DNA of 61,461 nt from a virus (IMGVR_UViG_3300002231_001522:1-61461); one strand, 5' to 3'; numbered from the stretch's first letter, positions 1-36,043 are shown. A program made the numbers and translations. The notes: generated by a model not told the origin, from the letters alone.

Positions 1-99
1 ATCACGTACCGGCTCTTCGTTTCAACAAGTAACTATTAAAAATACTGGTGGAAGAAACGAAACTAAATTTGTTTTCACAACAAACAAAGATTTCGAAGG
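1..99. repeat. Terminal direct repeat, copy 1 (circular assembly overlap)
   Basis: nt 1-99 are identical to nt 61363-61461. Confidence 0.97.
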
Positions 100-8981: not shown

Positions 8982-9499
8982 ATATGGCAGCAGCAGCATT
9001 GCCAATAGTAGAGGGAATATTAGGATCCGGGACTTCCGATGGAAAAAACGATTCTAATAAACAATCATCGCCTAAAAAAAGTAACGCTCCGTATGGAAAC
9101 GAGCAAAGTGATGAAGAAAATCCAGATATGAGTAACTCTGGCATGATAAGTGATGTACTTTCAATGATTCCTGGAACTCTTGATTTTATCACATCTCTTT
9201 CTAACATGTATTCGCAAAAAAATGCCGCTAAAGAATCCCAAAGACGGCAAACAATTGCGGAAAAAATGTACATGGAAGCAATGAATCGTAAACGTAATGA
9301 AATATTATCACAAAAAAGAATGCAAGCACAAGGACGTTTGTATAATAAAGGTAGAGTAGCGATGTCAGATAAAGAACGTCAACATAGTAATGCCTTAACC
9401 GAAAAAGGAATGCAATTTCAACAGACATTAAACCTTATGAATAGAAAACCTGCGTTGAGGAACTCATTAATTTCTCAAATGCAAGGAGGGGCATTATGA
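8978..9499 (+). CDS. Putative ejection/pilot protein
   Basis: 173 aa; 'MAAAALPIVEGILGSG' N-terminus then Q/K-rich helix, as in podovirus pilot proteins. Confidence 0.5.
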   Translation: MNMAAAALPIVEGILGSGTSDGKNDSNKQSSPKKSNAPYGNEQSDEENPDMSNSGMISDVLSMIPGTLDFITSLSNMYSQKNAAKESQRRQTIAEKMYMEAMNRKRNEILSQKRMQAQGRLYNKGRVAMSDKERQHSNALTEKGMQFQQTLNLMNRKPALRNSLISQMQGGAL

Positions 9500-16800: not shown

Positions 16801-19800
16801 TAGTCATGTAAGCCCAAATTATATGAAAGCGTCTTATTTAATTCAAGATGTAATAGACGAAATGGAAACTAATCTTTCTACTCCTGGAAAAAAAGGCAAA
16901 CTAAGACAAAACCAAATAGAATGGATGACACAAGCATATTTGGAAGGTGTTAGTCTAAATAGTCACGATACTGGCGGTGGAAAAACTTTTGCCGCAATTG
17001 GGTTAGCTCGAATATTAAAAAAACGAGGGTTAGCTAAAAAACCTCTTTTTGTTGTTCCTCCTAAAACTCTTAACAAATGGATACGTGAAACTCGGTTATT
17101 ATTCCCAGATGCTAAAATTGTTAATCTTGGTGAACTATACGCAAAAAAAAGAACAGAAGCGTTACTAAACATTGCGAATAAGAATGCAGATTTCACATTT
17201 ATTTCACATGAAGGACTTGGGCAAATAGCCCTAAAGTATGAAAATTTAAAAAGATACATTAATGATATTTATTATACACAAATTAAAGGTTCAGCAGAGG
17301 GGCTCTCCAATAAAAAAATAATAAAAGAACTTGAATCTTTTGAACAATACAAAGAAGTTATGAAGAATATAAGTAGTAAGAATGACCAAAACATTATTTG
17401 GGAACGATTGGGCTTTGATGCTATGATTACCGACGAAGCCCATGCTTTTAAAAATGTTGGTGTCAATAGTAGATTGTCAAATAAAGGTGTTGGTAAACCG
17501 TTTAGCGTGAAGTCTGGTGGTAAATTAGACTCTGTAAGATCGTATGATTTTAGATATAAAACAATAAATATATTGGAAAACAATAACAATAAAAATGTTT
17601 TTCTTCTCACAGCAACACCAACAGGTAACAAACCATTAGAAGTATATACGATGTTAGCACACATGGGAAATATTTGGGAGCAATATGGAATACACAATGT
17701 GATTGATTTTGCGAATATGTTTTATGAATTTAAAACTATTGTACCAGCAACAGGTGGAGAGCCTAAAGAAGTATTAGCTAAAATGATTAATCTTCACAAG
17801 TTACATTCAATTTTAGATAGATATGTTTCTTATTATCCAATGTCAGAAATGAAATGGATAAAAGTACCAGCGAAAAGCACACAGTTACACCATCTTGGTA
17901 GAAGTGATGAAGTTAAAGATGTTATGAACGAATTGACAGCCAGAGGTCAGATGATTAAAGGTCAATACAGGAAAGGAACAGGCGATGACACTTACACTTC
18001 TATATATGTACATGGGCGTAACGCCTCTGTTGATCCTCGTCTTTATCCTGGTGGAGATGCCGAAGCACTACATGCCACAGTATATCATAAAAACCGGTCT
18101 AAAAATTTGAGCAATGATAAAATCCAATATGCAATAAATTTAATGATTAAAAGGAAGAAAAATAATCCAGATATTGGACAATTGGTATTTATAGATAATT
18201 ACGGGAAACATTTATCAAAACAAAAGACATTAGAGGGTGAGCCTGTTATTTCTGAAGATATACAAATGGAAATTAGAAATGAACTAATAAAGAGGGGTGT
18301 ACCGTCCGAACAAATTGCTATTGTCAGGGATAAAATATTTGATCCTAAAACAAAAAAATTTGTATCAAAAGACGACGAAAAAGGTAGGAAAAAATTTCAA
18401 GAGATACAAGATGCTTACCAAAGTGGTGATATTAGATTTATGATTGGAACTACTAAAAGTATGGGTGAAGGTATTAACCTTGATTATAAAACAGGAAGTG
18501 TATATAATTTAGATTTTCCACATAAACCTGGTGAAGTTGATCAACGTCTCGGCCGTGCAGTTAGAGCTGGTAACTCTTTGAACAATGTAGATGTACATTT
18601 TTTCTTGATGGGAGGGACATTTGATGCTCTCTCTTATGGTATGATAGCTAAAAAACGTGGCTGGAACAGAGCTATATGGGAAGACAAAGCAGATGTACTT
18701 GATGTTACAGCTGAAATGTCAGAGGGCGATACTCCTTCAGACAAGGAAATTGAGATAGCGTTGATTGTTGATCCTATTGAAAGAGAAAAACGTAAAGTTA
18801 AATACAATATAGATAATCTCAATAAAACAATTCACGAAAACAATGAGGAGCTAATAAACATACGAGCCTCAAATAGATATTATGACTCAAAAATTGCTAT
18901 AATTAATGCTAAAAATATCGAGTTAAATAATACAATTCAAAAGACACAAAAGATTATGGGAACTGAAGAATTTAAAGAAAATAACAAAAAATCGCAAGTT
19001 AAAATTGATAAAATAAATACAGAAATTGCAAAAACTGATGCTAAAGAAAAAGGAAAAATAGCAACACTTGAAACTCGAAAGAATAATCTTAAGCAAAGAA
19101 TGACTACTGATAGCCGGAGAATACAAAATGCAGAAAATCATATTAAGGCTAATGATAAATCTATTCGTGATTACAAAGCGATTCAAGAAGAAGATGCAGA
19201 GCGTGGTAATAAACTAAGGGAGAAGTCTCTTGAAATACAGATAGAAAGAGAAGCTATTGAAAATAAATATTATCAAGATGGTAAATTTTCTATAAGTGAA
19301 GATATGGAAAAACAACTTATTGCACAAGATGAACTTGATAGAATAGGTTCAGAAACTGAGATCACAAAAGAATATTTTCTTACTGATGAAGCAAAAGATC
19401 AATATATTGTAGAACACCCTGAACTTGAAGATATGAGAAAAAATAAAGGGTCAATATCAATGAATCATCATGTTTCAAATAAATATTTACCTAAAGAAGT
19501 CATTGAAAATATTAAAATAATAGAATCCGATACGTTTACGTTTAGAGGGGAAAAACGCAGACTTGACAGTAACGGGCTAATTATTACAGATATGGATAGT
19601 GTCACAGTTGTATTGAAACCAGGGTTATCGGAACAAGAAAAATCTTCAGTTTTAACACATGAATTAATCGGTCATTTTGGCTTCTCTAATTTATTAAGGA
19701 ATGATCCAAAAATCTACAAGACTGTGATGGACATATTTGAAAAAGATGTAGATTTAAAAGAAGCTATAAGAAGAGAGTATAAAGAAGACCTTGCTCAAGC

Positions 19801-22800
19801 AGAACTTTCAGGTGGAATAGATGCGTATAATGATGTTCTTTTGGGCGAATGGCTTGCCCATGCTATCGATGTGAATGATAAAAAGAATTTTATCCAAAAG
19901 ATTTATGATGCAGTTAAAAAATTGCTCATTAAAATGGGATGGGCAAAACCTTCTAATATTGAAGAATTAATGCCAGTTCTTGTCCGTGAACTCAAAAATA
20001 CGAAAGCTCATAACTTTTCACCTTCTGTCAAAGTAACAAATGCGACTAACAAAGGATATGATAGTGCAATCCGATTTATGAAAAAGGTCGAAGTAAAAAG
20101 ACTAATGTCAAAAGATGAGTTAGTTAAAGAAAATTTAGTATTAGAGGAACAAGCCAAAAAAGACAAAAAACGAATTTATACTATTGATAGAGCAAAACAG
20201 AAAGTTATACAAGGTGTTAGAGACCATAAAATTAATGTAAAAAATTATCTTAAATACGCCAGAGAATATTCACGATTGGCTCTTGATCCAGGATTAAATG
20301 ATACTTTTAGAGCCAGACTTAGCACAATGTTAAATTCCCCAATATGGAAAAAATTAGATACTCCAAAACGGCAAGAACAAGCGAAATTACAACTGTTGAA
20401 TTTAATTAATCATCTTAATAGTATTCAGAGGCGGAAAGGTTCTATTGATAAGTTATTTAAAACTCTTAAACGTTCTAAAAGAGCAGAGGGTAAATCTAAA
20501 AAAGCTATAAGAGACATGCTTAAAGACGTTAGGAATAAACTAACGAATGGGAAGGGTAGATTAGATGCTAAATTTATCAACGAACTTGAAACTACACAAA
20601 TAAAAGAACTTACTAATGAGATTAATAAGATCCTTGCATATTCCAAAGGTGTTCAAGATGATTTTATTGCAGGAAGAATAGAAGATTTTGAGAAAAAAGC
20701 CGCTATTTGCGAAACAAACTTACGTAATACCCAGCCCAGTAAGGTTAAAGAGCTACCAAGAGGTGCTGGCGATAGCTTATTCCGAAAAGTATATGATTCT
20801 ATAGTTGGGATTGGAGCATCGACTACAGAGACAATTACAGAAGAATTAGACGGAATGGATAAAACAGAAGATAATGCAGTTATGTCCGATGTGTTTTTTC
20901 AAGCATTCCATGAAGCATCAAATGGTAAATTAAAATTCATGCAAGATTTGGAAGATAAATTCAACAAACAATTTAAGATTAATGATATAAAGGATTTGTC
21001 TGTCGTGTTTCATAGCAGTATGAAGGATATTTCTAAAATAGATAAACCTTATACTGTTACAGATAAAAATGGTGATGAACATACAATACATCTTTCTGGA
21101 GGACATAGAATTTCTTTATATCTTCATGGATTAAATGAGCATAACACAAAAGCATTAAAAGACGGAATTGCATTTGATTATGATTACGACAAGAAAAATC
21201 CTATTGAATTATCTGAAGAATCTATAGAAGAACTTACAAGCCCTGATATGTTGTCAGATACCGAACGGAAAATTGCAGATTTTATGTATAGTTTTCTAAA
21301 TGGTGAAGCTAAAACCGAATTAGAACGGGCATCTGATAGGATTAATGGTTATCCAATGGAATTAGTAGATAGTTACTTTCCATTACATAGAATAAACGTT
21401 TATAGAGATTTTCTAATAAAAGGTAGTAGTGATTTGTCTGGAACTGTGAATCAAGTATTCATAGAAGGAGCCGGAAGTTTCAAAGAACGAAAAAAAAACG
21501 CAGGTGGTTCTGTGTTAATTGAAGATGCTTTTTCTGCATTTTACAATTCTGCACTACTAACAGCAAGTTATTCCAATTATGCAATGCCTTTAAGATACGC
21601 AAAGCAAATGATTCACCATTTAAGACCGGTAGCAAGAGAAACACACCGGACGAAATATTTAGATGCATTGCAAAGATATGTTAAAAGAATTGAAGGTTCT
21701 AATAGAATAGTCGGTTTGGAATCTTATTTAAAATCAATAGTAGGTAACGTAGCGGCTAATGTCTTAGGTGGTAATATACCTGTTTTTTTAAGACAAGCTG
21801 GTTCTTATGCTTTAATAGCTACTGAAATTGATTCAAAATATTGGAGCAAAGCCGCTACAATGATACCATTAACTCAAAATGGTGGAAAACAATTAAGAGA
21901 TATTACTAAGAGATATTCTCCATTTTTTAGAGCAAGGTTTGAAAGTAACCTAATTAATGCGGAATTGGGACAACGGGCAGCCTCTCAACAAATTGGAAAA
22001 ACTTTTGGTAAAAAACTGCCTAAAACAGAATATGCAACACTTCCCATTCAATGGATGGATAGAGCAACTGTCACTCGAATTATACAAGCAGCTAAATTAA
22101 AAATTGAAGATACTACTAATTTAAAAGATGATGAAAAGTGGAACGCAATAGTTAAATTAGCTGAAGATATAACTATCCGTACCCAGCCAATGTATTCTAT
22201 TGAATACCGTTCAGAGATGGGGGCAAATCCTGCATTATGGGCGAGATTAACCTTTATGTTTACGTCTGCAACAAATGCGGTTTATAATACAATAAAAAGA
22301 ACATGGCTAAGATATAAAAGGTCTAATAGAACTCCTAAAGATAAACTGGACTTATTAGGTCGATTATTTGCTTGTTGGTTTTCTACATCATTACTAATGA
22401 CAGCTATTGATGAAGTAGCCGATTTTTTAAAAGGTAAATGGGACAGAGATGTTTGGAAACGTATTAATAGATTAATATCAAGGACATTCTCACCGTTTTA
22501 TTTTGGTGATAAAGTTGCAGGAATCGTTATTGATTCAATAAACTTTTTAAAAGGTGATGATTCATTTAAGCAAACAAACAATAGAGATCGTAATTTACTA
22601 AGTGTCATAAATCAAAACATTTTTCAAGGTTTTGGTGATGTTTATAGGTCATACAAAGACAAAGATCTACAAGCCGGCGATTATCAAAGACTGTTAAAAG
22701 GATCTGCCGAAATAGGTAATGCTGTCAGTATTTTAGCATTAAAAGGGTCAGTTCCTGTTTTAAATACATACCGATTGTTTGACGAAAGACTTAAGCCAAA

Positions 22801-23107
22801 ATGGCAAAAGTCAAAAGCAGATATTGAAGGTGAAAAAATTGGATACAAATCTAAGAAACAATTTATATTTTCTTACAAAGGATCAAAATATAAATTCACA
22901 AAAGGAGGTTATGAAACAGCCTCAAAGCAAGTATCTGAATATGAAAATAGAAAATTTGATTCAAATGTATATAAAAATCTTAAACCAGATGAAAAACTAA
23001 AGTATATTAAAGGTATAAATAGAGATTCATGGAGTGACTGGAAGAAAAAAAATAGGCACAAACTCCAACAGTTTACATTTATATACAAAAAGAAAGGTGA
23101 TGATTAA
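10826..23107 (+). CDS. Giant DarB-like polyvalent virion protein: InPase + N6-adenine MTase + SNF2 helicase + zincin metallopeptidase + helical C-terminus
   Basis: 4093 aa; 'QIKAGNYKK..YGYIKGT..HVDVF' (~14020-14450), 'YTGLGG', 'LEPAVGTGNF', 'ISNVPF' (~14650-15250), 'HDTGGGKT', 'DEAH', 'LLTATP', 'QRLGRAVRAGN' (~16960-18580), 'THELIGHFG' (~19655). Confidence 0.9.
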   Translation: MPINENAFDFLLDSNKTDTQNLSIDENAFDNWIEEPVQPVEKAKTDIGTGIVEGLTAGINKIPESDIEINPELKALGEKADIFLQGQRNKKLENLSDRIAEKNGTKQTFEPVDVKPFKTKTKIPLGTPAELRPVMKEIIEKQGQDYTQPLAGPDVSFSDRLKANKLAFKSGLEKHKAKVIGGDIPPYTGERKSDGKKYQDAIDREDTIGEQTLSSKGVKPEQFQYSGVYPTNESLKRLLGDTDNDTKNSVRSYLARNEQSKHIEKAKTLGEESEKLYPYSDRMEKLYATFDQAMGVKGDKTLGSKNIREIQKGWDAGYVDKELNKTIATLAMVSPQKAAELLPVVKDLQGDIQESIDTGDKGVFVKGAQRLARTLEPMMEAMTKQTAAMLIPGVGQTVLVPLAVASTFNEFSGMETGSVFQQLVENGVEPEVAASISVPEGLINAAIESFQVAEPISAGVETFGHTLSSAMSKNLAKYVKNKGIKKASQIPKDLIKHAFPEIIEETIQGGITDGTIEGTKANQMLGKNGFNTIKAAGKGALMSGLTSTPDMIAITALGMMTGGLAGKLKGVSLGNNKNHYNKIKSISESNKSKEEKIKELKRYLQDNPKFMESITSDIADNIMDNVIDLDVKAKNPLKSEPQQAKETIQPQQAKETIQPQQAEDLKTPQQDNVEPLPRKLENDLQTETITPESGEQKQIDTNASKSVDGNVDQEGKNQFRSEPSTIQNEIATKEEEPQSPTNVSSAGEIVINEAAFDDILNDIESSTEDVENNVKKESNKKIKTIRDVKKLTYDTIDKDANIRTKKDKNGELVPVSKNKEITAIAEDGFEHNFDVTVNKKNKVITKDKGLTETGQEQSTLNEINRLKDDVKVELETNPKLVNLSNKEKYFIGKQLNKASEIDKALPKLDVFIKKAKTLIKGEINVKQKANIGKGEKGVTSGQKVEPIGEPKPNRNVSKAKSGSGKEAINEAIPVPESAIEDNRTSNEVQPNTKRVEGLGAAGNNGRTSQGNTGKRLVSETNGRNDITNRKQPIQPKSSESIKQSEPEQLKTPESTQKKPIPSGNHADPTPSSDQIKAGNYKKKHLKRDGMDISIEVEKGENREGIDKNGKKWSTTMTYDYGYIKGTVSSDKEHVDVFIKSDDADLSKVFVVNQTNPDKSYDEPKVMLGFNDSKEAETAYLENYEDGWNNYSDIVEMSMYDFKKWAYDPNKAGPAKVEVIDEKIKSENDNYNLTNAKPISLKRTARKNINKQVKDILAKVKDDPTYKVTDAEKNILRQYTGLGGLDEAVTGRRWQHYTSYPVVKAMYNAIDQSGFTYKKALEPAVGTGNFVGMRPNANWVTVDLDKTNHQIMEILYPDANNYNMSFERLLIDDFDLIISNVPFQADRTKTPVSYRPEIKALHDYFFVESLDKVNDNGIVAFISSTGTMDKMDSSVRKEIISKADVLGAYRLSSEAFEDNASTSVITDIVFLQKRPNGVESIHKDDNEAFVDSVPYSDNTEFNINKYYKLHPEKILGEASVGKIQTAMGKEGLTVTGKPDLSKIVIHPHKYENAEKRTFKFKKNGKYPAKTKEMDKWIKDNNAIAYPDYEFYLDENGKMVLESNRKFNLASEVIDGTLWIKDDVVEFSDTDVKYAVFKKAEGVQVNKIDALMDIEDAAIKFQNTQDDNIANKGIQQVNDYLKKYGNPHKDKILRKYSKTTDTETLYLRLASFIDKEGRPADVFYEQTRYKSGFLKVNEKTGFNERALASENRNGIINISESEFISKNDIKKLNENYSILGKDKDGNYIYQNKVLYLSGNIFDKIDALNELIVAETNKSLQDKMKIQLDELYKILPKQDNLESININGNEEWFSDFADMLPFHIAKNGAGKYDIEPLTPTELSELDIKGDEKWLTEFDNIMEYKVRFPAYGRRRINKKTGSEARKVRKALLIYYRYLNTGRLINFRPKSESISTYKENLNKAYETIAKIKNAIKSKIASSENLSAVENKYNRQYNSHVSPNYMKASYLIQDVIDEMETNLSTPGKKGKLRQNQIEWMTQAYLEGVSLNSHDTGGGKTFAAIGLARILKKRGLAKKPLFVVPPKTLNKWIRETRLLFPDAKIVNLGELYAKKRTEALLNIANKNADFTFISHEGLGQIALKYENLKRYINDIYYTQIKGSAEGLSNKKIIKELESFEQYKEVMKNISSKNDQNIIWERLGFDAMITDEAHAFKNVGVNSRLSNKGVGKPFSVKSGGKLDSVRSYDFRYKTINILENNNNKNVFLLTATPTGNKPLEVYTMLAHMGNIWEQYGIHNVIDFANMFYEFKTIVPATGGEPKEVLAKMINLHKLHSILDRYVSYYPMSEMKWIKVPAKSTQLHHLGRSDEVKDVMNELTARGQMIKGQYRKGTGDDTYTSIYVHGRNASVDPRLYPGGDAEALHATVYHKNRSKNLSNDKIQYAINLMIKRKKNNPDIGQLVFIDNYGKHLSKQKTLEGEPVISEDIQMEIRNELIKRGVPSEQIAIVRDKIFDPKTKKFVSKDDEKGRKKFQEIQDAYQSGDIRFMIGTTKSMGEGINLDYKTGSVYNLDFPHKPGEVDQRLGRAVRAGNSLNNVDVHFFLMGGTFDALSYGMIAKKRGWNRAIWEDKADVLDVTAEMSEGDTPSDKEIEIALIVDPIEREKRKVKYNIDNLNKTIHENNEELINIRASNRYYDSKIAIINAKNIELNNTIQKTQKIMGTEEFKENNKKSQVKIDKINTEIAKTDAKEKGKIATLETRKNNLKQRMTTDSRRIQNAENHIKANDKSIRDYKAIQEEDAERGNKLREKSLEIQIEREAIENKYYQDGKFSISEDMEKQLIAQDELDRIGSETEITKEYFLTDEAKDQYIVEHPELEDMRKNKGSISMNHHVSNKYLPKEVIENIKIIESDTFTFRGEKRRLDSNGLIITDMDSVTVVLKPGLSEQEKSSVLTHELIGHFGFSNLLRNDPKIYKTVMDIFEKDVDLKEAIRREYKEDLAQAELSGGIDAYNDVLLGEWLAHAIDVNDKKNFIQKIYDAVKKLLIKMGWAKPSNIEELMPVLVRELKNTKAHNFSPSVKVTNATNKGYDSAIRFMKKVEVKRLMSKDELVKENLVLEEQAKKDKKRIYTIDRAKQKVIQGVRDHKINVKNYLKYAREYSRLALDPGLNDTFRARLSTMLNSPIWKKLDTPKRQEQAKLQLLNLINHLNSIQRRKGSIDKLFKTLKRSKRAEGKSKKAIRDMLKDVRNKLTNGKGRLDAKFINELETTQIKELTNEINKILAYSKGVQDDFIAGRIEDFEKKAAICETNLRNTQPSKVKELPRGAGDSLFRKVYDSIVGIGASTTETITEELDGMDKTEDNAVMSDVFFQAFHEASNGKLKFMQDLEDKFNKQFKINDIKDLSVVFHSSMKDISKIDKPYTVTDKNGDEHTIHLSGGHRISLYLHGLNEHNTKALKDGIAFDYDYDKKNPIELSEESIEELTSPDMLSDTERKIADFMYSFLNGEAKTELERASDRINGYPMELVDSYFPLHRINVYRDFLIKGSSDLSGTVNQVFIEGAGSFKERKKNAGGSVLIEDAFSAFYNSALLTASYSNYAMPLRYAKQMIHHLRPVARETHRTKYLDALQRYVKRIEGSNRIVGLESYLKSIVGNVAANVLGGNIPVFLRQAGSYALIATEIDSKYWSKAATMIPLTQNGGKQLRDITKRYSPFFRARFESNLINAELGQRAASQQIGKTFGKKLPKTEYATLPIQWMDRATVTRIIQAAKLKIEDTTNLKDDEKWNAIVKLAEDITIRTQPMYSIEYRSEMGANPALWARLTFMFTSATNAVYNTIKRTWLRYKRSNRTPKDKLDLLGRLFACWFSTSLLMTAIDEVADFLKGKWDRDVWKRINRLISRTFSPFYFGDKVAGIVIDSINFLKGDDSFKQTNNRDRNLLSVINQNIFQGFGDVYRSYKDKDLQAGDYQRLLKGSAEIGNAVSILALKGSVPVLNTYRLFDERLKPKWQKSKADIEGEKIGYKSKKQFIFSYKGSKYKFTKGGYETASKQVSEYENRKFDSNVYKNLKPDEKLKYIKGINRDSWSDWKKKNRHKLQQFTFIYKKKGDD
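12746..12811 (+). repeat. 27-bp coding tandem repeat (PQQAKETIQ, ~2.4 copies) in a linker
   Basis: cctcaacaagcgaaagaaacaatacaa twice, then cctcaacaagcg. Confidence 0.9.
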
Positions 23108-27274: not shown

Positions 27275-27303
27275 TTGACTTACAACATTTGTTGTGGTAT
27301 ATT
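27275..27303 (+). promoter_or_regulatory. Sigma70-type promoter with palindromic spacer
   Basis: TTGACT-17 bp-TATATT; spacer contains ACAACA-TT-TGTTGT. Confidence 0.75.
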
Positions 27304-27340
27304 ACAACATAAGGAATTAACATTAACGAAAGGAATATTT

Positions 27341-28261
27341 ATGTTGGGAAGAAGTGTACCTACAGATAATAACGGTGAGCCGTTGCAAGATGGAATATAT
27401 TTCAATGTTCCTGATGCTGAGTATCGAGATTGGGATTGTTTCTCATATTCAATGATAAAGAGTCTTATCATATCGCCTAAACATTTTTTAAATAATCATA
27501 AAAACTTTAAGCCCACAGAAGTGATGGAATTGGGTAATATTTTTGAGACTGAACTACTTGAGCCAGAGAAAATGTCAGAAGTTTGCAGGCAAACTCCAGA
27601 TAAAGCACCAAATGCGAAAGATTTGATGGTCCCGTTTTCACTACGTGTGCCAAAACATAGAGAAATCCTTCAAGAATATAGAGATGGCGGCTATATTCCT
27701 GTCTTTCCAGAAACGATGTCTAAAGTTAAAAAAATGGTTCAATCTGTTAAAACTCTAAAACATCACAAAAAATACCTATTTAAAGGGCAAGCACAAGTTT
27801 CGTTACTTTGGACTTGCCGTGATACTGGTATCCGTTGTAAAGCCCGTTTAGATGTCTATAATCCGCAGATAAACAATGTAACTGATGTAAAGACTACCTC
27901 GTCGGCTTTTGAGGAAAATTGGCGTACTCAGATAGGTAGAATGTATTATCATTGTCAGGCGGCACATTACTTATCTGGATTAGATCATTTACTTAGTGGT
28001 GGTCAAATATTCAGTTGGACTTTTGTAGTTGTTGAAAATGAAGAACCTTACGGGGCAAGAATTTTTCATTTAAGACCTGGTAGTGTATGTACTGGTGCGG
28101 AAACGGTAGGAATTTGTAAAAGAATATATAAAGAAATTCAGGATATTCCGGAAGAGGAATGGCCATGTTATCCTGTTGATGAAGAAATTGATATTGACAT
28201 TAGACCATATTTATTAAGAAGTGACGTTGATGATATGGGAGAGGGAGAAGGTGTATTATAA
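27341..28261 (+). CDS. PD-(D/E)XK exonuclease, RecE/ExoVIII-like (DUF3799-type)
   Basis: 'GIYFNVPDAEY', 'SYSMIK', 'CKARLD', 'DVKTT', 'YHCQAAHY', 'FVVVE'; ATG 27341 after AAGGA. Confidence 0.88.
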   Translation: MLGRSVPTDNNGEPLQDGIYFNVPDAEYRDWDCFSYSMIKSLIISPKHFLNNHKNFKPTEVMELGNIFETELLEPEKMSEVCRQTPDKAPNAKDLMVPFSLRVPKHREILQEYRDGGYIPVFPETMSKVKKMVQSVKTLKHHKKYLFKGQAQVSLLWTCRDTGIRCKARLDVYNPQINNVTDVKTTSSAFEENWRTQIGRMYYHCQAAHYLSGLDHLLSGGQIFSWTFVVVENEEPYGARIFHLRPGSVCTGAETVGICKRIYKEIQDIPEEEWPCYPVDEEIDIDIRPYLLRSDVDDMGEGEGVL

Positions 28262-29091
28262 TGAAAAGCTATGAAGATATATTTGAAGAGTTAAAAGCAC
28301 CGTTTCCAACTAAAGAAATTTATTGGCGGGTGGCTACAAGCCATTTAGACAGTTGGGGAAAATTTAGAGTTTCTATTGTAGCTTATGTAACTGCCAGAGC
28401 TATAAAAAATAGACTAAATAAAGTTCTTGGTATGTGTAATTGGGAAACTTACCACAAGCTGTACACAATTCAAAAAGCGAAAGGGACATACAAGGAAGTG
28501 ATTGCTGGAGATATTTGTACACTCCGAATCCGAAACGGTATTGACCAACCTTGGATAACCAAAGAAGATGGGGCAGGAGTTACAAATCAATCACCATTTA
28601 AAGGTGCTCTTTCTGGTGCAGAGAAGAGAGCCGGTGTTCAATTTGGTATTGGTCTTTATTTGTATGATTTTGAAAGAGATGATCTTTCAATTGATACGAA
28701 TAAAACTGAGTTTACAATTAATGACGACATTTGGTATGGGAAAGAGCCAAAAGATTCTATTGACTGTTCACCAGACAAAAGGGCGGCTTGGAAATATTCA
28801 CCATACCAAGCATTCAGGGATAAAAATAACAAGAACCATTATTTTTACTTTAAAATTCCTCAAATTCCTGATTGGGCATTACCTGAAGAGGAACGTTCAG
28901 ACAATATAGACTCTGTATTTAAAGAATTGAAGTCTTATTGTAAAAATAGTGTAGCTCGTGATATGATGATAAGCGAACTACTAAATTCTTACCCTGGTGG
29001 AGATTTTTATTCCCCTCGTAGATTAGTATTATTAAATGTCGTAGATATAAAAAAACGACTTAAAAACAAACAATTTAACTTTCAGAGGTAG
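28261..29091 (+). CDS. Rad52/Rad22-like (Sak) single-strand annealing protein
   Basis: 'LKAPFP..EIYWRV', 'AYVTARAIKNRLNKVLG..NW', 'KEDG', 'KGALSGAEKRAGVQFGIGLYLY'. Confidence 0.9.
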   Translation: MKSYEDIFEELKAPFPTKEIYWRVATSHLDSWGKFRVSIVAYVTARAIKNRLNKVLGMCNWETYHKLYTIQKAKGTYKEVIAGDICTLRIRNGIDQPWITKEDGAGVTNQSPFKGALSGAEKRAGVQFGIGLYLYDFERDDLSIDTNKTEFTINDDIWYGKEPKDSIDCSPDKRAAWKYSPYQAFRDKNNKNHYFYFKIPQIPDWALPEEERSDNIDSVFKELKSYCKNSVARDMMISELLNSYPGGDFYSPRRLVLLNVVDIKKRLKNKQFNFQR

Positions 29092-29094
29092 ATT

Positions 29095-29319
29095 ATGACA
29101 AAAAATGACATGAACCGAAGGCTTGCTGTACAAATTCGGTATCGGTTAAAAAAAGATAGAAGAACTCAGGCTGAAATTGCTCAATACATTGGGGCTAATA
29201 GGTCTAACTTTTGTCACATGCTAAGTGGAAGAGGAAATTTTTCCGTGTTTCAACTTCAACAGATAGCCGAATTTTTCGGATTAAAACTATCCTCATTACT
29301 AAAGGAATGTAGAATATAA
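29095..29319 (+). CDS. XRE/Cro-family HTH regulator
   Basis: 'TQAEIAQYIGANRSNFCHMLSG...LQQIAEFFG'. Confidence 0.85.
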   Translation: MTKNDMNRRLAVQIRYRLKKDRRTQAEIAQYIGANRSNFCHMLSGRGNFSVFQLQQIAEFFGLKLSSLLKECRI

Positions 29320-29813
29320 TGAGTAAAAAACTTTCAAAGAAAGATAGAATAAAAGCTCAACAAGATGCTTTTGAAAAGGAAAAAACCAAAGCAAATATGG
29401 AACAAAAGATTTCTATATTAAATGACATTGTAGCTCAAGAGGGTGGTTTATATAGGTTTCAGGTATTGTTAGCCGATTTTATGAAAATAAAAAGAGAACA
29501 TCTTATTCAATACATAAATAATAAAAAATTTATGTTTAATAACGAAGAGATGAGAATGGCTACAGCAGTATATGAGGCGGATGGTACTACATGTATAACT
29601 GTTTTTGATAGTAAAGATCTGCCATACGCAAAATTAACTGTTTGTATTCCTGAAGCTTCTGTATGTTTTGATGAAATATTAATTAAAACATGGAGTGAGA
29701 ATAAAGAACTAACAGATTGTATGAGAGATTTTAATTGGATAAAATACGGCGGTAGGAAATACGATTGTCCAAATGGTGTGGAAGCAGAAATTTGGAGAAT
29801 TAAGGGAATTTAA
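29319..29813 (+). CDS. Hypothetical protein
   Basis: 164-aa ORF, TAATG-coupled to the HTH gene. Confidence 0.7.
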   Translation: MSKKLSKKDRIKAQQDAFEKEKTKANMEQKISILNDIVAQEGGLYRFQVLLADFMKIKREHLIQYINNKKFMFNNEEMRMATAVYEADGTTCITVFDSKDLPYAKLTVCIPEASVCFDEILIKTWSENKELTDCMRDFNWIKYGGRKYDCPNGVEAEIWRIKGI

Positions 29814-29836
29814 CAAACTAAAAGAAAGGAATACAC

Positions 29837-31297
29837 ATGTCTAAAACAAAGTTAATAGGTATAGACGTGAAGGATTACAAACGGATTCAGGCATTTGAAC
29901 TTGGATTAAATGAAGATGGTGGGCTTGTTTTGATAAAGGGACCAAACGAACAAGGTAAATCCAGCCTGATAAATGCTATTCAATGTCTGTTTGAAGGAAA
30001 AAAGGTATTGAAAGGCGAACCAATTAGACGTTCGGCGAAAAATGCTACTATTATTGGTCATTTGTCTGTTGATGGAGAAAAATTTGTTGCAAGAAGACGT
30101 TTCACCCCGAAGAGCGATGACCTTGTTATTACAAAAGAGGACGGGACTGAAGTTAAAAGCCCTGCAACATTTATGAAAAATATGATAAATGCTCTTACGT
30201 TCAATCCTATGCCGTTTATCGATTCAAAACCGGCAGATAAATTGGCTACTCTAATGAAAGTCGGCAAAGTTGATTTATCATTAGAAAATTCTAAAATTGC
30301 AAACTTAACTCAAGAACGTTTACTTGTTGGTCGTGAAATTAAATCATTTGGTGAAATTTCATATGTTCCTGGATTAAAAGAAGTTAAAGTTTCAGAATTG
30401 ATCGCTGAAAAAAAGAAGATTGAGACTATTAATGAACAACTTAGGTTAGATTATGATGCTAAGTGCGAAAAAGAACGGTCTATAGTCGATAAATGGAATG
30501 AAGGCGTATCTGAAATAATTTCTGCAAAATTATCTGCCCAAAATGATATAGATAAATTAAAAAGCAAAAGGACTAATATTAATGATAGTCTTGCTGATTT
30601 ACAGGAACGTAAAAACGAATATAAACACCAAATAGAAGAGTTACAAGCAAAAATTAAATCTATTGATGACAATATGTCAATTGGTCAAGAACAGTTTGAT
30701 AACATGACTAAAGAAATTATTAAAAAAGATAATGATCTTGCTTGTATGCCAGAAACACCAGAAAAAAAATTGTTTGACAAATCAACTGTTGAAACTCCTT
30801 ATTATAAATCAACTGAAGATATTGATTTAAAAATTCAAAATGCCGAAGACCAAAACAAAGAATTTTTTGATAATGAGGAAAAACGGAAAAAATACAAGCA
30901 AAAGGAAAGTAAAAAAGAAATTCGGGAGGAATTAACAACAGAGATTGAAAAATATGAGGCTCAAAAAATAAAGAAGCTATCTGAGGCTGATTTTGGAGTT
31001 CCTGGTTTATCTATTACAGAATCGGATGTGTTTATGAACGGAGCTCCGTCTGAAGAATGGAGTAGTTCATTAGGTATGATTACAGCTTGTCAATTATGTA
31101 TTGCCCAGAACCCAGATTTAAAATCAATATTTTTAGACAATGCAGACCTTATCGGTCGTCCTCGTATGGAAGTTTTAAGAAAATGGGCTGAAGATAATAA
31201 TATTCTTGCAATATTAACGAAAGTTGATGATGACATTCTACCAGCAGATAAAACACCAGATAATGTGTTTTATATTGTTGATGGAAACCTTGCATAA
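29837..31297 (+). CDS. SMC/Rad50-like ABC ATPase with central coiled coil
   Basis: Walker A 'GPNEQGKSS', long coiled coil, C-terminal signature-like 'WSSS' and Walker-B-like 'IFLDNAD'. Confidence 0.85.
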   Translation: MSKTKLIGIDVKDYKRIQAFELGLNEDGGLVLIKGPNEQGKSSLINAIQCLFEGKKVLKGEPIRRSAKNATIIGHLSVDGEKFVARRRFTPKSDDLVITKEDGTEVKSPATFMKNMINALTFNPMPFIDSKPADKLATLMKVGKVDLSLENSKIANLTQERLLVGREIKSFGEISYVPGLKEVKVSELIAEKKKIETINEQLRLDYDAKCEKERSIVDKWNEGVSEIISAKLSAQNDIDKLKSKRTNINDSLADLQERKNEYKHQIEELQAKIKSIDDNMSIGQEQFDNMTKEIIKKDNDLACMPETPEKKLFDKSTVETPYYKSTEDIDLKIQNAEDQNKEFFDNEEKRKKYKQKESKKEIREELTTEIEKYEAQKIKKLSEADFGVPGLSITESDVFMNGAPSEEWSSSLGMITACQLCIAQNPDLKSIFLDNADLIGRPRMEVLRKWAEDNNILAILTKVDDDILPADKTPDNVFYIVDGNLA

Positions 31298-31306
31298 ATA
31301 ACTAAA

Positions 31307-31335
31307 TATAGCCGTTATGTTAAATGGCGGCTATA
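31307..31335 (+). terminator. Stem-loop after the SMC-like ATPase
   Basis: tatagccgttat / atggcggctata inverted repeat with G-U pairs. Confidence 0.55.
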
Positions 31336-31374
31336 AAATTTTTAAACAATAAGTAATTGAATTGGAGTATTAAA

Positions 31375-31860
31375 ATGGAAAAATGTAATATTGACAAAAA
31401 AAAAGTTTGTGATTTTTGTAGAAAAAATGGTATTTGTTCGTTTAGTACTGTTAGTGGTTGTGGGAATAGGGATTGTGAAAAGGCTTTGGAGTTATATTGC
31501 GAAGATAAGGGACTTGTTATTGACGAAGATAATATAACCTATGCAAAACATTTAAGAATAGGAGATCCTGTATATTATTTTAGGAAAGATTCCGGTGATA
31601 CCATTTTGAAAATGGAGGATATTACAGAATTGGCAATAAATCGAGATAATAAAAATGAAATTATTATATCAACAAATGGGGTGTTAAGTGATTTTCGATT
31701 AAAATTAGATGAGTCGTCATTAAAATGTAACATAACAGAATATTATATCAATTACAATGATTGTCGAGATGCATTGCTAAAATATTGTGAAGAAATGATA
31801 ATTAAATTTTCCAAAACTCTTGGGCAATATTCATACGATAAAAAAAAAATTAGAAAATAA
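31375..31860 (+). CDS. Hypothetical protein with Cys-rich N-terminus
   Basis: ATG 31375 after GGAG; several Cys in the first 45 aa. Confidence 0.65.
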   Translation: MEKCNIDKKKVCDFCRKNGICSFSTVSGCGNRDCEKALELYCEDKGLVIDEDNITYAKHLRIGDPVYYFRKDSGDTILKMEDITELAINRDNKNEIIISTNGVLSDFRLKLDESSLKCNITEYYINYNDCRDALLKYCEEMIIKFSKTLGQYSYDKKKIRK

Positions 31861-31894
31861 TAATATTTCTTTTTAAGAAAGGTAATATAGAGAA

Positions 31895-32845
31895 ATGACA
31901 AAAACAGATATTTTAATTAAATTAATAATTTCAGCTAAAAAAAATGATATGGTTTCTTTTGAAAAATATGTAGAGACTTTGATTGCGGTTGAAAAATCCA
32001 AAAACCATTATATATTAGCAGATAGATTATCGGTAGCGTTAAATTCCACAAATAAAATTAATAGTGTTAATTCTGTTGGTATCAAGAGCCCAGCCAAAGA
32101 TTTAATTTTTGAATTAAATCCACAAAAAAAATTTGATGATTTAATAATTAATGATATTTCTTTAAACGTATGTAAGGATTTAATAGCCGAGCAACAAAAT
32201 ATTGATTTACTTAAACCGTACGGTATATATCCGAGAAATAGAATATTATTAACTGGTGAGTCTGGTAACGGTAAAACAAGTCTTGCAGAAGCAATATCAA
32301 CACAATTAAATTATCCATTGTTTGTAATACGATATGATAATTTGATAAAAAGTTATTTGGGCCAAACGGCGAAACGTCTTAATGACGTTTTTGATTTTGT
32401 AAAAACAAAAAATTGTGTTTTATTCTTTGACGAATTTGATATGATAGGAAAAGAACGAAATGACATAAATGAGGCAGGAGAAATAAAAAGAGTTGTTAAT
32501 TCTTTGCTTTTACAAATAGACAGACTACCAAGCAATGTTATAATAATAGCTGCCAGCAATCACCAAGAACTTCTCGACAAAGCTATAAGACGAAGGTTTC
32601 AAATAAAATTAAACTTAGGAAGACCAAATAAGTTGCAAATAGAAATGTTTGTAAAAAAGATTTTCCACAGAACAAATATAAAATTTGATTATAATATCAA
32701 AAATCTTGCAGAAGAATTAATTGGATTAAGTTTTGCTAATATTGAAGAATTTTGTTTAGATGTTTGTAGATATGTAATATTAAACCATCAAATAGATAAT
32801 ATCAAAGATATAATACCCATAACGCTTAAACAAATAAAGGGGTAA
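31895..32845 (+). CDS. AAA+ ATPase resembling the IetA-type ATPases that normally pair with S8 peptidases
   Basis: 'GESGNGKT', 'LFFDEFD', 'SYLGQT', 'GEIKRVVNSLL', 'ASNH..LLDKAIRRRF'; N-terminal 'LIAVEKSKNHYILADRL'. Confidence 0.85.
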   Translation: MTKTDILIKLIISAKKNDMVSFEKYVETLIAVEKSKNHYILADRLSVALNSTNKINSVNSVGIKSPAKDLIFELNPQKKFDDLIINDISLNVCKDLIAEQQNIDLLKPYGIYPRNRILLTGESGNGKTSLAEAISTQLNYPLFVIRYDNLIKSYLGQTAKRLNDVFDFVKTKNCVLFFDEFDMIGKERNDINEAGEIKRVVNSLLLQIDRLPSNVIIIAASNHQELLDKAIRRRFQIKLNLGRPNKLQIEMFVKKIFHRTNIKFDYNIKNLAEELIGLSFANIEEFCLDVCRYVILNHQIDNIKDIIPITLKQIKG

Positions 32846-32847
32846 AG

Positions 32848-33174
32848 ATGAATATAGAAGTTAAAAAAGTAAAACTAACAAAAAGTTTAATATCTCAAAT
32901 GATGTTTATTAGTATGAAAAACATTAGTAAAGCTAAAGTATTGGGATTTTTGGTGGGTGTTAGAAAAGGGTATGATAAAATTATTCTGTTAGAATATAAT
33001 AACGATTATTATTTATGTGATGAAAGATGGATAAAAAGAGAAAAAAGTTTTTCCTTTATGTATAAAAGATGGTCATATAGTAAAAAGTTTAAAAGTGCAG
33101 AAGAATGTAATTTAATGTGGGAGGCTTATTCAAAAAAAAGAGGAGAGGCATTGAAAACTCATTTATATGTTTAA
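32848..33174 (+). CDS. Hypothetical basic protein
   Basis: 108-aa ORF directly after the ATPase. Confidence 0.65.
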   Translation: MNIEVKKVKLTKSLISQMMFISMKNISKAKVLGFLVGVRKGYDKIILLEYNNDYYLCDERWIKREKSFSFMYKRWSYSKKFKSAEECNLMWEAYSKKRGEALKTHLYV

Positions 33175-33190
33175 AAGGAGGATTAAAATT

Positions 33191-33343
33191 TTGAACAATC
33201 AACAAAACATACCTAACGAACAAGAGGAAAACTTACCGTTAAATAAACAATGTTCTTGGTGTGATCCGTTAGATAATAACTGCCGATACTTTGTAAAGAA
33301 TAAATGTTATTGTAGAAAATATAATATTAAATTGGAGGTTTAA
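33191..33343 (+). CDS. Small Cys-rich protein (50 aa; not in the ORF track)
   Basis: TTG start after AGGAGG; MNNQQ..CSWC..C..CYC..; fills the intergenic gap. Confidence 0.6.
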   Translation: MNNQQNIPNEQEENLPLNKQCSWCDPLDNNCRYFVKNKCYCRKYNIKLEV

Positions 33344-33344
33344 A

Positions 33345-33902
33345 ATGGAATTAGAGGTATTAAGATTTAGTAGTCAAAAGGATGATACACTTGGGTTATT
33401 GTTTGATTGTACAAACATGGAACGAAAATTCTTATGTTTTATTCTTGAAGATGAATATAGAGAAAAAAAAGTTTTGGGTAAAACGAGAATACCTGCATTG
33501 AAGTATGAAGTTACATTACGAACTGTCGGTGGTATGAATAGTAGATATAAAAAAGAGTTTCCTGATATACATAAAGGGATGTTATGGGTTAGGGATGTTC
33601 CTGGATTTAATTATATATATTTAATCCACATAGGAAACTTTGAGAATCAAACTAATGGATGTGGTTTATGTGGGGATCAAGCTAAAAGTAATATTGCTGG
33701 TCGTGGAGCTGTTTATGATTCCGAATTGGCATATAAAAAAGTTTATCCATTAATTGCGAATAAGATATTACTTGGTGAACGTGTTTATGTAACTTATAGT
33801 GCTTTTGATGGAAAGATGGATAAAGATATTGTTCCAGTAAAAACACAAATCCGTGAAGTTTTTGCTGATATTGCTGGAAAAATAGCAATTGCATTAAACT
33901 AA
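33345..33902 (+). CDS. DUF5675-family protein (candidate endolysin/peptidoglycan enzyme)
   Basis: 'TLGLL', 'FLCFILED', 'TRIPA', 'DVPGF..IYLIHIGN....TNGC'. Confidence 0.75.
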   Translation: MELEVLRFSSQKDDTLGLLFDCTNMERKFLCFILEDEYREKKVLGKTRIPALKYEVTLRTVGGMNSRYKKEFPDIHKGMLWVRDVPGFNYIYLIHIGNFENQTNGCGLCGDQAKSNIAGRGAVYDSELAYKKVYPLIANKILLGERVYVTYSAFDGKMDKDIVPVKTQIREVFADIAGKIAIALN

Positions 33903-33919
33903 GAAACGAGGATAAAATA

Positions 33920-34258
33920 ATGGTAGAAAATTGTATAAAAAGATTAACATCGGACATATTAATTGATACTTACAAAAACTATGGTGTTAAATCACAATGG
34001 TTAGGTTTTACAGTAGAAATGAAAGCGGAAGATTATGTTTTAAGCTGGTATTCCCGTGACAATAAAATAGGAGGTGTAAATGTATGTGACATAGATAAAG
34101 CTCATTATTTTACCCCAAAAGAACTCTTGAAATATTGGGAGAAAATAGTCGTTAAAATAAATGAAGAAGTACAAGTTTCTGCCGTATGTAAGTCGGAGAA
34201 TGAATATTACAAATATCCATTGCCACCTGCAATACTATCTGATGTCTTGTATAAATAA
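33920..34258 (+). CDS. Hypothetical protein
   Basis: 112-aa ORF with GAGGA RBS. Confidence 0.65.
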   Translation: MVENCIKRLTSDILIDTYKNYGVKSQWLGFTVEMKAEDYVLSWYSRDNKIGGVNVCDIDKAHYFTPKELLKYWEKIVVKINEEVQVSAVCKSENEYYKYPLPPAILSDVLYK

Positions 34259-34275
34259 AATTATTAGTTTTATTA

Positions 34276-34304
34276 TTGTTATTGTGATTGTTATTGTATA
34301 TATT
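34276..34304 (+). promoter_or_regulatory. Putative promoter for the replication genes
   Basis: TTGTTA-17 bp-TATATT in an AT-rich (TTA/TTG)n tract. Confidence 0.5.
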
Positions 34305-34352
34305 ATTATTATTACATATTATTTTGTTTAATTTAAAAAAGGAGTATTTTCT

Positions 34353-34550
34353 ATGAACCAGAAAACGTATATAGATGATCTAAAAGACCGTTGTAAGGCA
34401 TTTGGATATAAAAGAGTTTGTAAAGAGATAGGATGGCCCCATTGGAAATTGACACAAAAATTGGGAGGGTTTACCGCCAAACCTATGAGCCCAGAAGAAA
34501 GAGGATTGATTGAACAAGTGTTGGAAATATTAGCAACTAAGGAGGGATAA
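34353..34550 (+). CDS. Small Cro-like/HTH protein
   Basis: 65 aa; 'YKRVCKEIGWPHWKLTQKLGG'; directly upstream of the replication initiator. Confidence 0.55.
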   Translation: MNQKTYIDDLKDRCKAFGYKRVCKEIGWPHWKLTQKLGGFTAKPMSPEERGLIEQVLEILATKEG

Positions 34551-35504
34551 TTGCCTAATAAGAGATTACCGTGGTTTAAGTTTAATGTTAATGAATGGCT
34601 ATCTGGTAACATAACACTTGAAAATGAGTTTTACCAAGGTTTGTTCATTAATATCTGTGCATATTACTGGAAACGTTCGTGTAATGTGACTTATAATAAT
34701 TTGATGAAAAAATATAAACATTTAAAAGAAAGTGATATTAATTATCTTTTTGATATTAAAGTTATAAATAGAAAAAATAATGTTATTGTAATATCTTTTC
34801 TTGACGAACAATGGAAAGAAAGAATCAAACTAAGCAAAAGAAATAGTACAAATGGGAAAAAAGGGGCAATTCAACGCTGGAAAGAAGATAATAATAGTTG
34901 TGAAACACCTAAAAAAGAAAATGGCGAATGCTATGGCGAAAGTATGGCGGTCGCTATAGATAAAAATGGCGAATGCTATGGCGAAAGTATGGCGGTCGCT
35001 ATAGATAAAAATGGCGAATGCTATGGCGAAAAAATAGCGAACGCTAAAGATAAAAATAGCGAACGCATGGCTATCTTAGATATAGATAAAGATATAGATA
35101 AAGAATATATAAATACTATGTCTAAAAAATTTGATAAAATAGAAAATTTATGTTCTTATTGTATTTTTTCTTACTGGTTGGAATGTGGATTGTTAAAACA
35201 TCGGAAGTTAAAAACGGAATTAAAAAAGAAAATTATTTTAGCAATTAAAAAATACGGTGTTACCCATATTAAAAATGCTATAAAAAATTATTCTACAATT
35301 ATTAGAAATAATGATAAATATTGGTTTTCGTACAAATGGAATATGGATGAATTTTTCCGGCAAGGGACAAAAAAAACTCCACCATTAGAAATGTTTAGTG
35401 ATGAACGTTGTCCATTAGTGCAATATTCTCGAAACAATATTACCGAAAAACAAACTCACCAAGTTCCTAAACCGGTAAATGGTGCAGATACAGGACTTTT
35501 TTAA
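34551..35504 (+). CDS. Phage replication initiator (lambda O-like organisation; YdaU/DUF1376-like N-terminus)
   Basis: 'LPWFKFNVNEWLSG', 'NGKKGAIQRW', internal DNA repeats, 'DIDKDIDKE' linker. Confidence 0.8.
   Translation: MPNKRLPWFKFNVNEWLSGNITLENEFYQGLFINICAYYWKRSCNVTYNNLMKKYKHLKESDINYLFDIKVINRKNNVIVISFLDEQWKERIKLSKRNSTNGKKGAIQRWKEDNNSCETPKKENGECYGESMAVAIDKNGECYGESMAVAIDKNGECYGEKIANAKDKNSERMAILDIDKDIDKEYINTMSKKFDKIENLCSYCIFSYWLECGLLKHRKLKTELKKKIILAIKKYGVTHIKNAIKNYSTIIRNNDKYWFSYKWNMDEFFRQGTKKTPPLEMFSDERCPLVQYSRNNITEKQTHQVPKPVNGADTGLF
34917..35105 (+). repeat. Iteron array, putative replication origin inside the initiator gene
   Basis: 45-bp unit atggcgaatgctatggcgaaagtatggcggtcgctatagataaaa x2 plus partial/degenerate copies, then agatatagataa x2. 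Confidence 0.8.
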
Positions 35505-35518
35505 ATAGAGAGGTTAGT

Positions 35519-36043
35519 ATGAATGATAATGATAAACGGTTTTTTCTGGATAAAATGGAGGAATTAAGGGCTTATTACGGTTGTAATAGTATTGATTTTT
35601 CTCTTGCAAACGAAAAAGATACGGTCAATATTACTAAAATTGGTGATTATTGGTTTGTATTAAAGAGATTGTCTAAATTACAATTGTATGAATTGATAAC
35701 ACATGTTAGGAGAAACTGGGATAGTACATATAAAAAATTTCCTGGTGTACCTGTATTTAAAAGATTTGCAGATGAGAAATTCCCAAAAAAAGTATATTCT
35801 AATTACATACCGGTTAAAAATGACAATACTATTGATGATAAAAACGAAGGGCTATCATTCAAAGATCTTGTTAATAAATTCCGGTCTGGGAAAATACCAA
35901 AGGGAGACATAATACCTGAAGGATGTTGTATTAATCCTGCAACTGGTAAAATACTTAAAATAGATGAAGCCCGTAAAATTCCTGGGGCTTATACTTTACC
36001 TAATAAAACAGCTATGATAGTAACCCATAACGACAATACTTAA
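35519..36043 (+). CDS. Hypothetical protein, possible helicase loader/inhibitor
   Basis: 174 aa directly after the initiator; function from synteny only. Confidence 0.4.
   Translation: MNDNDKRFFLDKMEELRAYYGCNSIDFSLANEKDTVNITKIGDYWFVLKRLSKLQLYELITHVRRNWDSTYKKFPGVPVFKRFADEKFPKKVYSNYIPVKNDNTIDDKNEGLSFKDLVNKFRSGKIPKGDIIPEGCCINPATGKILKIDEARKIPGAYTLPNKTAMIVTHNDNT

Follow-up and report, generated by a model that had tools for sequence, protein, structure and literature searches.

The viral DNA analysed here, a stretch of 61,461 nucleotides (nt) referred to below as the window (IMGVR_UViG_3300002231_001522:1-61461), encodes at 31895..32845 on the plus strand an orphan ietA-like gene, that is, a 316-residue AAA+ ATPase of the classical clade belonging to the IetA family, which lacks the IetS protease that accompanies IetA in the bacterial IetAS system. 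We tentatively favour the reading that the product of this gene is an orphan antitoxin used by the phage against the IetAS system of its host, an explanation that we regard as possible but would not yet call probable. According to the available part of a 2026 paper (PMC13069673), IetAS entered the literature as a toxin-antitoxin pair that stabilises plasmids, in which the protease is the toxin and the ATPase is the antitoxin. The same part of the paper states that the anti-phage mechanism "remains unknown" and that no system carrying a mutated ietA could be obtained, and it describes no phage countermeasure against this widespread abortive-infection system. The accessible portion of a preprint (bioRxiv 10.1101/2022.08.27.505566) likewise presents IetAS as a system acting by abortive infection, which is set off by a phage protein whose function is unknown.

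The identity of the gene was established by open reading frame (ORF) calling, PADLOC models, AlphaFold and Foldseek. The PADLOC IetA model PDLC04232 matched the protein from end to end (E = 1.7e-120, 400 bits; residues 1-315 on positions 1-317 of the 330 in the profile), in agreement with a preliminary description of this DNA that had reported an IetA-like N-terminal domain and AAA motifs. Three more PADLOC IetA models matched at E values of 5e-77 to 3e-65, and the IetA models other than PDLC04232 aligned with the protein only from residue 58-82 on. Further matches were obtained with Pfam AAA (PF00004, 3e-30) and with phrog_3757 (PHROG 3757, 3e-80), a family whose function is unannotated. Because the NCBIfam IteA equivalog model NF042959 gave 220.8 bits against a cut-off of 510 bits and covered only residues 58-301, we assign the protein to the PDLC04232 subfamily, which is another one than that modelled by NCBI. 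Overall, the profile matches confirm the 316-residue ORF as a full-length AAA+ ATPase of the IetA family. A homologue search of 5.8 billion protein clusters led to 8000 scored candidates, of which 6578 proteins passed at E ≤ 1e-10; the closest bacterial IetA proteins are ∼325 residues long, share 55-70% identity with the window protein and come from metagenome-assembled genomes of many phyla, and the best matches in a cultured-phage set of 50,697 records are at most 31-41% identical to it.

The N-terminal three-helix domain (residues 1-52; 31895..32050, plus strand), with helices at residues 3-15, 19-35 and 39-51 in the model, is specific to the IetA subfamily, and all 13 of the columns that are invariant there in alignment A1 are retained by the window protein. 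The AAA+ motifs were located on the same strand by alignment. Walker A (G121-T128, GESGNGKT; 32255..32278) carries the change P123S, at a position where each of the 85 paired family members has Pro. Residues Y154-L155-G156 (32354..32362), which we take to be pore loop 1 by analogy with classical AAA proteins, are intact, as is Walker B (V175-E180, VLFFDE; 32417..32434), which is followed by an altered loop at residues 183-195 (G189N, T194A). The stretch from sensor 1 (N222) to the Arg fingers R233/R234 (32558..32596) has R at residue 232, and the shortened C-terminus (LKQIKG-stop; 32818..32845) is without the "QW..R[FA]" tail of paired IetA. Sensor 2 (R292) is present, and so are K127, T128, D179, E180, N222, R233 and R234; the earlier statement that Walker A, Walker B and the Arg finger are intact thus holds, all catalytic motifs being present in the translation and the alignments. 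An AlphaFold model built from a 20-sequence alignment (predicted local distance difference test score, pLDDT, 81) comprises the three-helix N-domain and an AAA+ core with its lid, joined by a poorly ordered linker (residues 53-64), and its top Foldseek matches are FtsH, proteasomal Rpt/PAN and p97 (E ∼1e-13, template modelling score 0.6-0.67). A complex prediction, run with alignments, between the phage IetA and residues 1-360 of the closest paired IetS (locus L006), the N-terminal part of a protein from a stand-in organism, gave a score of 0.01, which speaks neither for nor against the proposal made below; IetA probably works as a hexamer.

The toxin gene was then sought throughout the window. 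Pfam Peptidase_S8 (PF00082), run against all six frames of the whole genome, gave no match at E ≤ 10, in a search whose control was positive in 8 of 14 reference genomes. Similarly, the PADLOC IetS model PDLC04233 gave no match at E ≤ 10 in the complete genome, and a local profile made from the sequences of 81 IetS partners and applied to the genome with filters off reached at best E = 4.1 and 1.1 bits. The ten ORFs near ietA gave neither a PADLOC IetS match nor a Pfam protease domain. The absence of an S8 peptidase from the complete genome, previously asserted from inspection, is therefore what all three of the genome-wide searches returned. The two-gene IetAS system needs an adjacent S8 ietS gene, which was not found in the window.

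We compared the gene with bacterial loci, taken as the best 80 of 335 confirmed matches and classed by the IetS profile in six frames. An IetS match lies directly 3' of ietA in 78 of these 80 loci, five of which have it split in pieces and several cut by the contig end, and two (L059 and L067) retain only short N-terminal stumps. In L024 there is no room downstream of ietA, leaving L019 as the only true solo copy among the 80. Cultured carriers with an IetS of the PDLC04233 type are represented by Janthinobacterium lividum PAMC 25724 (L012) and Neomoorella carbonis (L050). Ten partners were checked and all matched PADLOC IetS (PDLC04233 or relatives); nine also matched Pfam S8, the remaining one, in L005, being the first piece of a split gene. 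In a careful maximum likelihood (ML) tree of 53 rows (LG+C20+F+G4), the window protein was grouped with P0002 (98/82) within a five-row clade (100/100), which was joined to the IetS-paired L006 (97/98), and the joined clade lies within the paired loci L004-L009. A quick tree of 116 rows left this placement unchanged. The nearest relatives, P0002-P0004, are 66-70% identical to the window protein. DNA was obtained for only one member of the five-row clade, L121 (68% identity), on a contig of 1298 nt, in which an IetS (MPEKPLLIFPEPS...) begins 2 nt past the ietA stop and matches the first 28 positions of the profile at E = 3.6e-7. Because the window protein is nested in a paired clade and has a paired sister in L121, the phage gene descends from a paired system; derivation from an IetS-paired lineage is in this sense shown by the tree and the gene order. 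The window protein groups with S8-adjacent ATPases and not, as the preliminary description had allowed for, with AAA ATPases that never neighbour S8 peptidases.

Two observations concern the paired loci themselves. In L006, L007, L017, L031, L034, L048, L054, L057, L075 and L077, an ORF of 620 residues or of 900-950 residues ends just before ietA. This upstream ORF may be the IetH-type helicase of the ietHAS variant, a three-gene arrangement described in the available part of PMC13069673. Further, the first ten residues of IetS, M-x-x-K-P-L-L-I-F-P, are nearly invariant in 25 partners (L005-L009 and L121 included) that are otherwise 32-68% identical (alignment A2), making this motif a candidate handle for the ATPase.

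To judge whether the phage gene is being maintained, we considered its rate and pattern of change. In the ML tree its terminal branch measures 0.497 substitutions per site versus 0.034 for the sister, that is, ∼15-fold longer. Part of this length is attributable to the AT-rich genome, which skews the amino acid composition (F, Y, M, I, N and K make up 41% of the window protein versus 33% of the sisters) and so somewhat inflates the branch. The window protein differs in 75 of the 273 columns on which the four sisters agree, and the changes avoid conserved positions: 7 of 73 columns (10%) are changed in the most conserved bin versus 31 of 74 (42%) in the most variable (Mann-Whitney p = 4e-6). 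A Nei-Gojobori comparison with L121 gave 0.186 for the nonsynonymous rate (dN) and 1.40 for the synonymous rate (dS), a dN/dS of ∼0.13 that is rough since dS is near saturation. When the L121 gene was evolved neutrally to an equal protein identity (1000 runs in each mode, indels ignored), stops appeared in 99.8% of the unbiased and in 100% of the AT-biased simulations. The avoidance of conserved columns, the dN/dS and the stop-free frame together make an inert remnant very unlikely and show a gene under continuing purifying selection. Two features common to paired proteins have been given up: position 232 is aromatic (W, Y or F) in 96 of 96 IetS-paired sequences and is R in the window protein, and the C-terminal tail, kept by all 96 of the paired sequences examined, is gone from it.

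Solo copies of ietA are also present in further viral records, one of which is a second complete phage, as came out of the survey that the preliminary description had proposed. A first viral scan, in which all 38 viral loci were kept, contained 15 loci of the family type, of which ten are paired, two carry IetS stumps (L085 and L086) and three are solo (L084, L093 and L002). With the window excluded, the solo arrangement is found in 3 of these 15 viral loci versus 1 of 79 bacterial loci from the best 80 of 335 (Fisher p = 0.012). A later scan added two further solo copies of the family type, L186 and L190. The longer metagenome twin of L002, L122, has its best IetS score (E = 0.19) on a 74-residue ORF after ietA, which may be the last trace of IetS. 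L084 belongs to the complete phage, G001, which has direct terminal repeats (50,192 bp; CheckV 100%), and IetS, an integrase and a serine recombinase were searched for in G001 without any being found. Its DNA is 85% identical to that of the paired bacterial L009 over 997 nt, from position -26 of ietA exactly to its stop, with a dN/dS of ∼0.08. Because the solo lineages (the window, L084, L093, L002/L122, L186 and L190) adjoin different paired relatives, IetS was lost or left behind many times.

The solo condition is also found in a viral-only clade of eight contigs (L102, L106, L108, L109, L111, L180, L181 and L182), all of them solo, in which no IetS was found within 5-6 kb of the ATPase gene. 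PDLC04232 is the best PADLOC model, N-domain included, in the five members scanned. Residue 232 is non-aromatic in 8 of 8, and the C-terminus is short and different from the paired type. This clade is separate from the window protein, with ∼33% identity and a stem length of 3.1, and of five members checked for the Tyr of pore loop 1, which the window protein keeps, four have another residue there. The window protein is a much younger derivative of paired IetA, independent of the viral-only clade. The recent orphans L084, L093, L122, L019, L186 and L190 retain W232, and most also retain the tail. A lead that emerges from the comparison is that loss of the aromatic residue at 232 and of the tail may go with a long-standing solo life in phages.

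Three observations from the mobile loci are recorded alongside. At L085:6997-7290 and L086:2552-2953, the first 97-126 codons of ietS remain after an intact ietA, giving snapshots of toxin loss on mobile elements. The neighbours of ietA in other solo loci are without a PHROG family in 8 of 10 cases. In L093, a ParB-fused DNA methyltransferase is encoded at 8496-9911, 1.6 kb downstream of the solo ietA; orphan methyltransferases are typical anti-restriction genes, and this region may be an anti-defence cluster.

We propose the following course of events for an orphan antitoxin used against IetAS. A non-integrating phage would have taken ietA from an IetS-paired bacterial system, the toxin being either not taken or lost early, and the gene would be expressed together with early or middle recombination genes. 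Once the host IetAS is triggered, the phage ATPase would add antitoxin activity, so that IetS would stay inactive and infection could be completed. The changes at residue 232, in the tail and in the loop after Walker B may confer insensitivity to whatever frees IetS from the host IetA. The idea, raised together with neutralisation in the preliminary description, that the phage ATPase jams the host system is unlikely: IetA is the antitoxin, and jamming it would release the toxin, to the detriment of the phage.

Several points weigh against this proposal. The action on IetS is something that we infer from sequence relationships, and the sole hint of a host is that the closest paired relatives are likewise low in GC content (33.6% for the L121 gene, 26.8% for the phage gene). 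The viral and bacterial samples behind the comparison of solo frequencies were drawn differently. Plain decay of IetS does occur, as the stumps in the bacterial L059 and L067 and in the viral L085 and L086, and the solo bacterial L019, attest, and loss of W232 is seen in two independent lineages only. Moreover, 84 columns show a conservation of at least 95% across the 85 paired members, and at nine of these the window protein deviates (R3K, R102N, P123S, A135S, E157Q, G189N, T194A, S202N and W232R), whereas the four sisters deviate at none and no paired member at more than 5 (median 0); N102 and N202 also occur in other IetA subfamilies, as seen when 11 paired proteins were added. If W232 and the tail are needed for IetS, a protein without them may have moved to another job.

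The explanation that would accommodate such a move, and that we consider somewhat unlikely, is a repurposed unfoldase: a former half of IetAS now acting as a general AAA+ remodeller in recombination or replication, or in dismantling a host protein, with IetS irrelevant to its role. The gene is co-directional with those for the exonuclease VIII-like, Erf-like and SbcC-like proteins, the model has a fold of the unfoldase type, and the ∼15-fold longer branch and the nine changed family-invariant columns, several of them in the post-Walker-B loop and beside the Arg fingers, are what a change of function could bring about. In having lost W232 and the tail, the window protein has converged on the state of the stable-looking viral-only solo clade, and these losses fit a repurposed unfoldase at least as well as an antitoxin. 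On the other hand, the N-domain, the likeliest part to bind a partner, retains every invariant residue, and there is no conserved synteny with replication genes, a blast comparison of the ORFs of the loci with the window proteins having returned no common neighbours. Further, L084 is a recent solo copy whose nucleotide sequence is 85% identical to that of a paired locus; it is too young to have acquired a new function, and still it has been kept.

Distinctly unlikely, in our estimate, is a narrower form of the antitoxin proposal, in which the solo phage IetA proteins would be "untriggerable" antitoxins that restrain the protease and cannot be switched off by infection. The aromatic residue at 232 and the W-containing tail would then be the parts by which the host antitoxin is turned off upon infection.

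A new two-gene module, in which a 108-residue ORFan would have replaced IetS as the partner of IetA, forming a toxin-antitoxin or exclusion pair or serving as an adaptor, is in our view quite improbable. This ORFan (32848..33174, plus strand) occupies the position held by ietS in paired systems: its ATG lies 2 nt past the ietA stop, behind a Shine-Dalgarno-like AAGGGG, with the spacing seen between ietA and ietS in L005-L008 and L121, and it is without relatives. Against this, tight gene spacing is common throughout the operon, a homologue of the ORFan is present in no other solo locus, and PADLOC, PHROGs and Pfam yield no family for the ORFan, which finds only itself among the 5.8 billion protein clusters and has a poor predicted fold (Atlas model pLDDT 0.44). 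Its identity as an IetS remnant was ruled out by the lack of similarity to the local IetS profile, and that as a member of a known family by the lack of matches in family and cluster searches.

Finally, that a whole IetAS cassette was once carried and lost its toxin, leaving ietA to drift toward loss as an inert leftover, can scarcely be true: complete pairs in the temperate phages Yyerffej and 683R6, in an Acutalibacteraceae phage and in a Pf phage (the last according to the available part of PMC11878078), the decay route marked by the IetS stumps in L085, L086, L059 and L067 and the raised evolutionary rate of the window gene would suit it, but the frame is intact after ∼0.5 substitutions per site where no fewer than 99.8% of the neutral simulations have acquired stops, substitutions avoid conserved columns at a dN/dS of ∼0.13, and every catalytic motif is intact.

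The genomic setting of the gene is as follows. The window covers a complete phage genome, which IMG/VR places in the class "direct terminal repeats" with a CheckV completeness of 100%, and the 99-bp direct terminal repeat at its ends (1..99 and 61363-61461) marks it as such. Few of its proteins fall into recognisable families; these are the large subunit of the terminase, the exonuclease VIII-like protein, the annealing protein resembling Erf and the SbcC-like ATPase. The ietA-like gene sits in a long co-directional block just 3' of a recombination module (27275..31297, plus strand) made up of the exonuclease VIII-like and Erf-like proteins, a helix-turn-helix protein, a 164-residue ORF and the SbcC-like ATPase (phrog_1499). 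Between this module and ietA lies a 167-residue ORF with a Cys-rich N-terminus (31357..31860, plus strand), which is without a family match in PADLOC, PHROGs and Pfam. Among the ten neighbouring ORFs, the sole PADLOC match is that of the SbcC-like ATPase to models of LmuB/AriA-type ATPases, and no relatives of this SbcC-like neighbour were found in viral contigs. The lysogeny markers searched for, namely a tyrosine integrase, a resolvase and a large serine recombinase, were not found in the window or in G001, and no tRNA genes were found in the window. Positions 29000-36000 gave no megablast match to the 50,697 phage records.

Other features of the genome were observed in passing. A DUF5675 / phrog_1501 protein (33345-33902, plus strand) has 48 relatives in viral contigs (41-60% identity), none of which has another gene in common with the window, as befits a widely travelling single-gene module. 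A 317-residue ORF at 34551-35504 (plus strand) matches phrog_29280 on its N-terminal part only and contains three tandem 15-residue units, NGECYGESMAVAIDK twice and a variant. A single ORF of 4093 residues (10826-23107, plus strand) takes up one fifth of the 61-kb genome. The coding strand and the GC skew switch at ∼37.8 kb and 53.3 kb, and the 15-kb block between these points consists of small minus-strand genes, nearly all without a family match. The IetA-like protein and the 108-residue ORFan are both recorded on two contigs in the protein collection, the longer of which measures 111,436 nt; the phage may thus also be present in a larger assembly, whether as a concatemer, a bigger relative or an integrated form.

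The different outcomes would have different consequences. If IetS is silenced by the phage protein, the latter would rank as the first anti-IetAS factor and also as the first anti-defence protein that is an AAA+ ATPase, and residue 232, the tail and the post-Walker-B loop would reveal the site of control over the protease. If in addition it proved untriggerable, it would represent a new class of ATP-driven anti-defence protein and would point to the mechanism by which IetAS senses infection. If it does not silence IetS, a defence antitoxin would have been recycled into a phage protein. In each case, a natural gene of the ietA-only type, preserved by selection in phages whose genomes are complete, offers a ready-made reagent.

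The gene can be set beside several known systems. With the unfoldases FtsH, Rpt/PAN and p97, the window protein has in common the fold of its model and the aromatic-hydrophobic-Gly motif of the putative pore loop 1. With IetA of the IetAS (Gao_Iet) system, in the PADLOC subfamily PDLC04232 that pairs with IetS PDLC04233, it shares full-length homology including the N-domain, its nested placement and the intact AAA+ motifs. Unlike IetAS, however, the window is without IetS, and its gene resides in an apparently non-integrating phage and not in a bacterium, plasmid or prophage; unlike paired IetA, the protein is without the aromatic residue at 232 and the tail and has P123S and an altered post-Walker-B loop. 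Complete pairs are known from phages. In the temperate phages Yyerffej (Paenibacillus), vB_EcoS-683R6 (Escherichia) and NatCom_11578 (Acutalibacteraceae), an S8 peptidase follows an IetA-like ATPase, which is not so in the window, and the Pseudomonas Pf phage PfAC08 carries the full IetAS pair, as given in the portion of PMC11878078 available. Such pairs in temperate phages serve the lysogen as a defence, whereas no integrase or serine recombinase was found in the window.

A parallel in layout is provided by DarTG. In the literature searched, we found no report of an orphan IetA acting in counter-defence, but the earlier remark that no anti-defence protein of this kind is described was too strong: the available part of PMC11825919 reports that orphan phage antitoxins of the DarG type neutralise DarTG1 and were taken up several times independently by phages. 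The DarTG orphans (the NADAR/DarG-like proteins of T4-like phages and the ICP1 antitoxin mimic) are, as here, toxin-less antitoxin homologues with recurrent uptake, and the features of an orphan antitoxin are found in the window and its solo counterparts, namely the presence in a phage of a homologue of the antitoxin but not of the toxin, maintenance by selection and repeated acquisition. The DarTG orphans differ in being small hydrolases that reverse a DNA modification and whose activity has been shown, whereas the window protein is an AAA+ machine with a putative protease target and is known from its sequence. It is plausible, therefore, that what is new here is the orphan-antitoxin layout realised with another type of protein, and directed at another target, than in the DarG-type orphans.

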